Assembly (NCBI GenBank): GCA_023382875.1
Contig: JAHDXH010000005.1
Coordinates: 1 to 56,483 of the forward strand
Length of the DNA stretch: 56,483 bases
Source: Patescibacteria group bacterium
GTDB lineage: Bacteria > Patescibacteriota > Microgenomatia > UBA1400 > PJMF01
Reading direction: 5' to 3'
Every line of letters starts with the position of its first letter. Position 1 is the first letter of the stretch. The notes under the pieces are model-generated. The model did not search any database. It saw only the letters and a program-made list of their open reading frames with translations, and was not told the origin of the DNA. Shown here in pieces: positions 1-1,620 of this stretch. Position numbers and translations under genes: made by a program.

Positions 1-181
1 CACTTTCAGAAATAATTTCGACCGCATCGAAACTGTCACCCAATACTGATTTAAGCTCTTCAATCAAATCTCTGAAATATTGACTCGATGGAATTGTCAG
101 ACCATTTTCGACGGACCAGTTTTTTAATAATAAATTAGTATCAGCAGATACTAAATAAGGTTTAATAAATTGTTCTTTCAT
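1..181 (-). CDS. 5' part of a hypothetical protein (runs off the window edge)
   Basis: ATG at 181 opens MKEQFIKPYLVSADTNLLLKNWSVENGLTIPSSQYFRDLIEELKSVLGDSFDAVEIISES with no stop before position 1; not in the ORF track. Confidence 0.75.
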   Translation of the reverse strand, partial: MKEQFIKPYLVSADTNLLLKNWSVENGLTIPSSQYFRDLIEELKSVLGDSFDAVEIISES

Positions 182-225
182 TTTATTTTTTATGTCGCGA
201 AATCAGCCATTTTTGGTACAGGTAC

Positions 226-251
226 AAAAAACCCGCTTCTTCAGCGGGGTG
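226..251 (-). terminator. intrinsic terminator (attenuator 3:4 hairpin)
   Basis: minus strand CCCGCT-GAAGA-AGCGGG followed by TTTTTT, about 45 nt upstream of the ATG at 181. Confidence 0.8.
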
Positions 252-278
252 TGACTGTCTTCGCTATAAAAAATAAAG

Positions 279-350
279 TTAAATCACCCCGCTGTCTGCG
301 TGGGTGTGATGAACAAAAGATAGTGATTTTTTTATTAAGTTAACTAACAT
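279..350 (-). promoter_or_regulatory. putative His-rich leader peptide of a transcription attenuator
   Basis: ATG...TAA encodes MLVNLIKKSLSFVHHTHADSGVI; its 3' end CAGCGGGGTG is the exact complement of the terminator 5' arm CACCCCGCTG. Confidence 0.7.
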
Positions 351-359
351 AAATTGGGG

Positions 360-433
<74 letters not shown>

Positions 434-464
434 ATGTTTTGCCACCGTTCTCGACAAAGAATTC

Positions 465-548
465 TGGTGCCCAGGAGAGGACTTGAACCTCCACAGCTTG
501 CGCTATACGCACCTCAAGCGTACGTGTATACCATTTCACCACCTGGGC
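465..548 (-). tRNA. tRNA-Leu(GAG)
   Basis: GCCCAGG/CCTGGGC acceptor, TACGC-TTGAGGT-GCGTA anticodon arm, long variable arm, CCA end. Confidence 0.95.
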
Positions 549-595
549 TTAGAACTAATATTTTACCACGCTCGGGGAAAATCGTCTTTGGGATT

Positions 596-1522
596 TTATT
601 TATAGTTGGCAGTAAAGGCTTGCAAGGTCTTAGCCGAATTATAAAGCTTTACCACTTCTTCTTCGGAAAGTTTGGCCATTAAAATTCTCTCAACACCTTC
701 TCGACCCAAAACACAGGGTACTGATAAAGCAACATTACTCAAACCATAATAATCATTCAAAGGAACTGACAATGGCAAAACCGTTTCTTCATCGCGCAAA
801 ACCCCATTCATAATTTCAACAATCGCAGCGGCGATGGCGTAATAGGTAGCACCTTTGGCATCAATAATTTTATAGGCAGCATTTTTAGCTTGAGAATAAG
901 CTTCATTAGCAAACTCCATCGAGAAATTTTTGAGCTCAGTAATATTTTGACCACCCACAGATGCAGAGGAGATAACTGGGAATGAACTATCGCCATGCTC
1001 ACCTAAAATGTAGGCGTGAATACTGCCAGGATTAACTTTAAGCTTCTCTGACAAATGACTTCTAAAACGAGCTGTATCAAGAATTGTGCCCGAACCAAAA
1101 ATCTGGCCAGGGGTAACTTTGACCACTTGGTTTGCTCTATAAGTCAAAATATCAACCGGATTGGAAACAATACACACCACTGCGTCTGGAGCAGCTTTCA
1201 TGATCTTGGGCATGGCGTCTTCAATAATATCAACGTTTTTCTTGACCAACTCCAGTCGGGTTTCACCAGGCTTTTGCGCCACACCGGCGGTCATCACAAT
1301 AAACTGACAACCCTCGAGGTCTTTATAACTATCTGTTGGAATTATTCTGGCTGACTGTAAAAAGGGGAGAGCGTGCTCGAGGTCAAGAGCTTCACCTTCG
1401 GCTCGCTTTTTATCCCTCGAAAACAAAACTAATTCGTTCGGAGTTCCATCAATCAGCATCGCAAACGCTGCCGTCACACCAACGTGACCACAACCAATAA
1501 CACCGACTTTAATAGAACTCAT
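596..1522 (-). CDS. ldh: L-lactate dehydrogenase
   Basis: GxGxVG Rossmann motif, AGVAQKPGETRL loop (Gln specificity residue), DTARFR, GEHGDS; start placed at MSSIK after an AAGGA RBS. Confidence 0.92.
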   Translation of the reverse strand: MSSIKVGVIGCGHVGVTAAFAMLIDGTPNELVLFSRDKKRAEGEALDLEHALPFLQSARIIPTDSYKDLEGCQFIVMTAGVAQKPGETRLELVKKNVDIIEDAMPKIMKAAPDAVVCIVSNPVDILTYRANQVVKVTPGQIFGSGTILDTARFRSHLSEKLKVNPGSIHAYILGEHGDSSFPVISSASVGGQNITELKNFSMEFANEAYSQAKNAAYKIIDAKGATYYAIAAAIVEIMNGVLRDEETVLPLSVPLNDYYGLSNVALSVPCVLGREGVERILMAKLSEEEVVKLYNSAKTLQAFTANYK

Positions 1523-1620
1523 ACTTTCCTTACTTAGTTTGTACAAGTCAAATATAGCAATTTTTCGGGATGATTGTCGATTGGAAAGCCGAGTAAAGGA
1601 TGTTATAATTTCTCTCTCAA

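Follow-up and report, generated by a model that had tools for sequence, protein, structure and literature searches.

On a 56,483-nt stretch of DNA from an uncultured Patescibacteria group bacterium (the window, which is contig C5 of the genome studied here, G000; 1.0 Mb in 29 contigs, 96.9% complete), a short minus-strand leader lies between a tRNA-Val gene and an open reading frame (ORF) that leaves the contig end. The element is very probably a transcription attenuator of the ribosome-mediated leader-peptide type, with charged tRNA-His as the signal sensed, and the gene behind it, whose product has a phosphoribosyltransferase (PRT) fold, is a candidate member of a histidine-starvation regulon in bacteria unable to make histidine. 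A sequence-only reading of the window had proposed the layout of ribosome-mediated attenuation, which is supported by conservation in homologues, by matching antiterminator segments, and by promoter-driven leaders without a tRNA. The parts it had listed, i.e., the 23-aa ORF with H14, H15, and H17 behind tRNA-Val, hairpin 1:2 over the His codons, the exact complementarity of segments 2 and 3, the 3:4 terminator, and the gene start at 181, were all recovered (Table 1).

Anatomy and predicted operation of the leader

The leader ATG at 350 follows the end of tRNA-Val by 7 nt according to ARAGORN and by 10 nt according to Rfam, the latter matching the earlier figure. Three His codons are clustered in the leader ORF (CAT at 311-309, CAC at 308-306, and CAC at 302-300). 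Hairpin 1:2 pairs 306-298 with 292-285 and leaves one A bulged. Segment 2 (294-285) is the exact reverse complement of segment 3 (251-242) over ten nucleotides. The intrinsic terminator, which is also listed by the terminator scan, combines CCCGCT (248-243) and AGCGGG (237-232) in a 6-bp G+C-rich stem with a 5-nt loop, followed by T6. An outer helix encloses this hairpin and ends 16 nt before the gene ATG; no T run lies behind it in this genome.

Table 1. Parts of the leader locus in the window and sister leaders elsewhere in the genome (uORF, upstream ORF; MFE, minimum free energy; asterisks, stop codons).
Feature	Position	Strand	Evidence	Remark
tRNA-Leu (GAG)	465..548	minus	ARAGORN; Rfam tRNA, 53.9 bits	first of the upstream tRNA pair
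tRNA-Val (TAC)	357..434	minus	ARAGORN; Rfam tRNA, 72.7 bits at 360-433	
Leader peptide ORF, 23 codons and TAA, MLVNLIKKSLSFVHHTHADSGVI*	279..350	minus	ORF list; homologous uORFs in relatives	
Regulatory codons CAT CAC ACC CAC (His14, His15, Thr16, His17)	300..311	minus	sequence read	
Segment 1, 5' arm of hairpin 1:2	298..306	minus	sequence and fold	overlaps His15-His17
Segment 2, CAGCGGGGTG	285..294	minus		partner of either segment 1 or segment 3; stop codon 3 nt on
Segment 3, CACCCCGCTG	242..251	minus		partner of segment 2 (antiterminator, 10 bp) or segment 4 (terminator)
Segment 4, AGCGGG (237-232) and T6 (231-226)	226..237	minus	terminator scan	
Outer helix, 264-252 / 209-197	197..264	minus	MFE fold	encloses terminator hairpin and a second small hairpin using the T tract
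Regulated gene, first 60 codons, ATG at 181	1..181	minus	ORF list	frame leaves contig end
Second His leader, MNKTVLLLTKVAHHTHS*	G000:C6:18292-18345	minus		antiterminator and terminator (stem and T6); directly before hisS
Third His leader, MQNINMHHNVWYYTPTGRCVFLMR*	G000:C1:3404-3478	minus		with terminator; heads operon converging on the PRT-fold gene

Genome-wide, 29 of 8450 short ATG-started ORFs contain at least three His within four codons, of which four lie between genes; a terminator follows only two of the four, namely this leader and the one before hisS. By a looser rule, two consecutive His codons (HH) occur in 3 of the 62 intergenic sites of the genome that combine a uORF with a terminator. 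We folded the RNA with a ribosome footprint imposed at a given A-site codon (masked folding). When the A site was placed on the first or second His codon, the 2:3 helix formed (−20.4 kcal/mol) and the terminator did not; with the last His codon or the stop codon in this position, it was the terminator that formed. Attenuator behavior was obtained by masked folding for all three HH leaders of the genome.

From this anatomy, we infer the following course of events. The transcript would most likely originate from the tRNA-Leu/tRNA-Val promoter, and a ribosome would initiate at AUG 350. With plentiful His-tRNA, the ribosome would reach the UAA at 281-279 and cover segment 2, upon which segments 3 and 4 would form the terminator and transcription would end at the U6 tract. 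With scarce His-tRNA, it would stall when His codon 14 or 15 occupies the A site and leave segment 2 free, which could then pair with segment 3 over 10 bp once segment 3 is made; the terminator would thereby be blocked, and RNA polymerase would read on into the gene at 181. There is no room for a separate leader promoter, since the 3' end of tRNA-Val lies only 7–10 nt before the leader ATG, and the tRNA-Leu/tRNA-Val transcript is the likely source of the RNA entering the leader. A 316-aa gene on the same strand, which by our own reading resembles lactate/malate dehydrogenase, is located upstream of the tRNA pair and ends at 596.

Conservation in homologous loci and occurrence before other genes

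Homologous loci were gathered by protein, blind to the DNA in front of the gene. Species genomes contributed 6 loci, and of 175 metagenome loci the best 80 were taken. These loci provided 80 upstream regions (79 loci and G000), 77 of them with at least 200 nt, and 67 remained after redundancy removal. Three consecutive His (HHH) were encoded in a forward frame of 30 of these 67 regions and in a reverse frame of only one (200 shuffles: mean 0.36, maximum 2), and HH in a forward frame of 44 compared to 11 for the reverse frames (shuffle mean 13.6). None of the other amino-acid triplets tested in the 67 regions displayed a comparable forward/reverse asymmetry. Runs of at least two CAY codons (CAT or CAC) were present within 300 nt upstream at 44 of the 67 loci and runs of at least three at 30, with CAT (83) used more often than CAC (39). 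An in-frame ATG located 4–30 codons upstream without an intervening stop was found for the His frame at 35 of the 44 loci, but for the other two frames at only 5 and 2.

The sequence-only reading had looked to homologues for a His-rich uORF with a terminator, and would have taken the lack of the uORF or of its His codons as an argument against attenuation; the ATG-started His frame came out in its favor, as did the sites behind it. Among 35 leaders, chosen for having a His uORF together with a terminator-like site, this site was confirmed behind a CAY run of at least two in 33, the remaining two having no such run, and a matching antiterminator segment was present in 27 of the 33 leaders tested for it.

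The peptide tails of close relatives are similar (…HHHHASSGVI*, …HHHLLTSGVI*, …HHSLAASGVI*, and …HHYHATSGVI*), whereas those of distant relatives with 34–40% protein identity are quite different (…HHHNQLFLEEIGCG*, …HHHIGLFREEINFG*, and …HHHKKGLY*). Across distant lineages, the copy of the terminator 3' arm lies in differing reading frames. Conservation of the arms is therefore at the level of RNA, and that of the His codons at the level of coding. Homologous leaders that share the peptide tail and the helices are found behind their own −35/−10 boxes with no tRNA upstream. In several of these, the −10 box is located, judged by eye, 6–8 nt before the uORF ATG, which suggests leaderless translation. 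The same RNA scaffold with one His codon (e.g., …TFAHQSRLFLEEIGCD*) was seen at L053, L065, L072, L077, and L092, which suggests either that one such codon is enough for regulation or that the scaffold is in decay at these loci.

An alignment of 14 leaders of the G000 type was used to follow the helices. The 2:3 antiterminator was paired in 92.1% of cells, with a core of 8 bp in 14 of 14 leaders and 41–64% in slid controls; the corresponding values were 97.5% for the terminator hairpin and 82.1% for hairpin 1:2. In the same-genus genome G001, the 2:3 helix has a double change from G-C to A-U. The equivalent of the outer helix was paired in 90.2% of cells with three pairs changed on both sides (11 cells), although the classical model has no need of it. 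Most relatives have a second T run behind the outer helix, the two together forming nested terminators, whereas G000 has none. At L015 (540-610) and at equivalent positions, which correspond to 197-264 of the window, the outer helix covaries and an inner second hairpin pairs with the U tract of the terminator. A conceivable extension of the 2:3 helix via an AACGT/ACGT repeat was dropped, as no covariation was visible by eye among the leaders.

Two further His leaders were identified in the same genome (Table 1). The one before hisS has a TATAAT box 6 nt before its ATG. A His uORF precedes hisS in 9 of 30 relatives (G000 included), with a terminator in all nine; hisS is without a His uORF in the remaining 21, of which only L138 has a terminator-like site, located far upstream. 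The third leader heads an operon comprising a small ORF, a second PRT-motif protein, a HAD phosphatase, and an inosine–uridine-type nucleoside hydrolase. The second PRT-motif gene (G000:C1:2323-3102) was rejected as a family relative (BLASTP E=0.012, confined to the loop); a homologue of it was also not seen in the loci retrieved.

The leader also occurs before genes outside the PRT-fold family. Exact copies of a 15-nt leader core were found in 10 of 286 genomes of the order; only exact copies were used because matches with one mismatch were about as frequent as those of a reversed-pattern control, and the copy in G015 was set aside for want of a uORF. In G001 (L145, G001:C1, 835-2386), the leader MLINIALYQNNHHHHAISEVI* stands before a gene with the best PDB match "Histidine racemase" (9cr6, E=7e-17), which is followed by a GNAT acetyltransferase. 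In G594 (L178) and G587 (L182), it precedes a gene of the aromatic-amino-acid/histidine ammonia-lyase family (PF00221, E about 1e-173 or 8e-173). A histidine-degrading enzyme induced by starvation would be a paradox unless this ammonia-lyase-like enzyme runs in reverse or uses another substrate. In G518 (L169) and G520 (L171), the leader is located before a fusion of an N-domain of about 235 aa, racemase-like by eye, with HisRS; here, the His frame MLIKDVQNQLRHHHHAI* (…RHHHHAI*) is retained and stops at TAG, while the usual SGVI tail frame is shifted by one base. The leader of G020 precedes an uncharacterized 247-aa protein.

Objections and alternative explanations

Several observations weigh against a functional attenuator at this locus. 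The leader has neither its own promoter nor a Shine–Dalgarno (SD) sequence, and initiation would have to come 7–10 nt after a tRNA; there are only three His codons, with Thr between them. Of 24 runs listed, four had their RNA and DNA contigs placed on window positions 1-1600; what the RNA contigs covered there was limited to tRNA-like pieces and a short part of the upstream gene. In fold energy, the leader does not stand out (z −1.62, equaled by 9 of 200 shuffles), and the case therefore rests on the comparison of homologues and not on stability. The MFE structure of the naked RNA ending at the U tract already prefers the 2:3 helix, which makes termination dependent on folding order and requires hairpin 1:2 to be the first to form. 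Masked folding of the L015 group gave an MFE structure that retains the terminator. The same energetic order is reported for the E. coli trp leader. Regarding the homologues, 23 of the 67 loci have no CAY run of at least two in the 300 nt upstream, and 6 of the 33 leaders tested show no matching antiterminator segment. Among 24 loci without an adjacent short ATG-started HH uORF and terminator, 21 show none in the examined flank, and three have them before the preceding gene of the operon; five of six inspected loci of that kind keep the scaffold with a single His codon. Since the loci are kin, the counts overstate their independence. The PRT-fold gene itself is sporadic (8 of 401 genomes of the class), with no detectable copy in G001 of the same genus. 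The missing SD sequence is no objection, as this genome hardly uses SD sites: the core motif (GGAG, GAGG, or AGGA at −20 to −4) precedes 13% of its long ORFs as compared to 9% in shuffled controls. Its 16S rRNA ends with the usual anti-SD, and initiation seems to proceed largely without SD pairing.

The simplest alternative takes the hairpin and T6 for a mere terminator of the tRNA-Leu/tRNA-Val transcript, with the uORF, the His codons, and the 2:3 complementarity being coincidences of similar hairpin sequences. The absence of a promoter between tRNA-Val and the leader beginning 7–10 nt behind it fits this explanation, as does the low z-score of the fold, and arm sequences shared by both hairpins would produce the 2:3 complementarity automatically. 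It is contradicted by the conservation of the His frame and by G001, whose tRNA-Val has no such element behind it, yet a leader is present elsewhere in that genome. As G001 lacks both a leader after tRNA-Val and the PRT-fold gene, the arrangement in G000 is a local one. A plain tRNA terminator was also the outcome that the sequence-only reading had envisaged should attenuation fail; it is excluded in practice by the homologues that have the leader behind their own promoter without any tRNA, and we regard it as extremely unlikely. A second possibility retains the translated uORF as a sensor of His-tRNA but places the output at translation initiation or message stability instead of termination. 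Some attenuators do sequester the ribosome-binding site, as noted in PMC9413887, 16 nt separate the end of the outer helix (264-252 / 209-197) from the gene ATG, and at least one relative (G069) has no clean terminator after the uORF. G000, however, has a canonical stem with T6 and no SD sequence to sequester, and a terminator-like site after the CAY run was confirmed in 33 of the 35 chosen leaders. A translational output is possible for some relatives; as an account of the element in G000, we consider it highly improbable.

Also very unlikely, in our estimation, is a conserved RNA read by a factor other than the ribosome, be it uncharged tRNA-His on the CAY run in the manner of a T-box, a PyrR-like PRT product, or a protein of the TrpR/HisR family. 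The His codons complement the anticodon of tRNA-His, PRT-fold proteins such as PyrR bind leaders, and PyrR and PurR are among the fold matches of the modeled relative P0001 (Z 7.2–7.3; see below); furthermore, a TrpR-family gene is located just upstream at 6 of the 67 loci, and the outer helix, which classical attenuation does not need, covaries. Against such a factor, an ATG opens the frame of the CAY run at 35 of 44 loci, as opposed to 5 and 2 for the other frames. No TrpR-family gene adjoins the leader in G000, and the same scaffold occurs before non-PRT genes, which argues against autoregulation by the PRT-fold product. The leader matched neither the T-box nor any other Rfam family on window positions 1-700 or on six related loci, His_leader (RF00514) included (E ≤ 10 on window positions 1-700, E ≤ 1 on the six loci). 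A sub-threshold resemblance to Trp_leader was seen at 223-321 (21.6 bits with a gathering score of 41, E=0.078).

The gene behind the leader, its neighborhood, and known systems

The gene controlled by the putative attenuator continues at the start of contig C1 (G000:C1:1-681), where the rest of it was located. A full-length relative of 300 aa with 94% identity (P0047) places only residues 61-74 in the assembly gap. Pfam lists only PF00156 for the protein, matching the phosphoribosyl pyrophosphate (PRPP) loop alone and below threshold (18.4 bits, cut-off 26.3), and no HisG domain (PF01634); the sequence-only reading had not recognized the gene as one for an enzyme of histidine biosynthesis. 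All NCBIfam matches were far below their cut-offs, the ESM Atlas returned only hypothetical-protein clusters, one with PF00156 on 14% of its members, and a sequence-profile search of the PDB matched the PRPP loop alone (OPRT 2wns, E=6e-5). None of the sources consulted provided an informative family name. The DDV..G.T motif of the PRPP loop is invariant in the family alignment. The proposed check on the full gene with Foldseek pointed to a type-I phosphoribosyltransferase fold: an AlphaFold (AF2) model of P0001, a relative with 51% identity and not the G000 protein itself (mean confidence pLDDT 93.1, template-modeling score pTM 0.89), matched with its residues 12-195 both OPRT 2wns (Z 11.4; root-mean-square deviation 3.6 over 123 residues) and APRT 2dy0 (Z 10.8), and Foldseek gave E=4.5e-6. 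For the C-terminal part, about 100 conserved residues, no structural match was among those listed. Judging from this model, the gene encodes an enzyme-like protein of about 300 aa that combines a type-I phosphoribosyltransferase core with an extra C-terminal domain. Compared to known type-I enzymes (OPRT, APRT, XPRT, and UPRT), it shares the fold of residues 12-195 and the PRPP-loop motif but differs by scores below the Pfam and NCBIfam cut-offs, by the extra C-terminal part, and by its link to histidine regulation, which the known enzymes lack. The idea of an anti-phage defense system of the PRTase/SLOG type was abandoned because PADLOC matches were weak and confined to the loop (E=0.002–0.007).

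HisG, HisA/F, HisD, and IGPD (HisB) were not found in G000, with 14 of 14 control genomes being positive each time. HisG was also absent from five other genomes with the PRT-fold gene, and PF00977 was clearly absent from four. The PRT-fold enzyme is therefore outside the canonical pathway in these organisms. To describe its neighborhood, 115 flanking ORFs from the 67 PRT-fold loci were compared with Pfam. SLOG cluster-4 (LOG-like) proteins were the most prominent neighbors (31 loci), accompanied by HisRS (9 loci), PfkB kinases, AstE/AspA-type deacylases, and HAD hydrolases (7 loci each), TrpR-family (TrpR/HisR) proteins (6 loci), nucleoside hydrolases (3 loci), HisG as a separate gene (2 loci, L038 and L060), and an ammonia-lyase (1 locus). 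That the gene serves histidine acquisition or salvage, as the sequence-only reading had supposed, is plausible, since both the neighborhoods and the sister leaders tie it to histidine. The TrpR family takes in the predicted histidine repressor HisR/YerC of Firmicutes, according to PMC9413887. Just after the TrpR/HisR-family gene, a direct repeat TTAGCGT-ATTAGCA overlaps the −35 box (L015 at 400-460, L016, L017, L177, L178, L182, and L183); it may be an operator, which would give double control by repressor and attenuator. At L027/L028 (1049-1381), a TrpR-family ORF runs in frame into a His-codon leader (…KAKIHHHHVISGVI*), and the leader peptide may therefore be supplied by the end of the repressor gene.

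In comparison with known attenuators, the leader shares with enterobacterial hisL the short leader ORF, the clustered His codons inside segment 1, the mutually exclusive 1:2, 2:3, and 3:4 helices, and the intrinsic terminator before the regulated gene. It differs from hisL, which has seven His codons in a row, by having only three, by not matching the Rfam model, by its predicted target, one PRT-fold gene, in a genome that has no his operon, by its position directly behind tRNA genes, and by the extra enclosing helix. The E. coli trpL attenuator follows the same logic, in which the position of the ribosome chooses between 2:3 and 3:4; here, however, the regulatory codons are His instead of Trp, and with a Trp_leader match below the family threshold, the leader is not a member. 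Leader peptides with His codons are documented in Proteobacteria and Firmicutes (PMC2965389 and PMC9413887), for Firmicutes before the hisS paralogue/hisZ in bacilli (PMC2965389) and before his operons or transporters in the B. cereus group, Peptostreptococcaceae, and Erysipelotrichales (PMC9413887). The Firmicutes leaders have 3–5 His codons, a terminator, an antiterminator, and targets from the hisS family and from biosynthesis, and G000 likewise has a leader before hisS; the differences lie in the phylum and in the targets, which are a PRT-fold enzyme in G000 and racemase-like and lyase-like genes in relatives. The word Patescibacteria is absent from PMC9413887.

In full-text searches of the literature, we found no report of leader-peptide attenuators in Patescibacteria or of transcription attenuation linked to histidine in the Candidate Phyla Radiation (CPR), and the element would extend leader-peptide attenuation to a phylum without an earlier report in the literature found. 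It would also be an attenuator fed by the transcript of a tRNA operon, in a genome that barely uses SD sites. Bacteria of the CPR are thought to depend on others for amino acids, and little is known about how they sense a shortage. It is possible, if rather doubtful, that the His leaders label a regulon, so far undescribed, by which CPR bacteria auxotrophic for His acquire or salvage histidine, and that the PRT-fold enzyme, at the same time, catalyzes a PRPP-dependent step with an imidazole-related or histidine-related substrate. Such a regulon would include hisS, the histidine-racemase-like and the histidine-ammonia-lyase-like genes, the latter possibly acting in reverse, the deacylases, and, equally tentatively, a ribose-phosphate module formed by the PRT-fold enzyme, the SLOG/LOG-like proteins, the nucleoside hydrolase, and the HAD phosphatase. 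We know of no characterized phosphoribosyltransferase that performs a step of the proposed kind. A conserved His-codon leader may be regarded as a built-in label for genes that are wanted when histidine is scarce, and the PRT-fold family with its racemase-like, lyase-like, and LOG-like companions would therefore be candidates for histidine scavenging.

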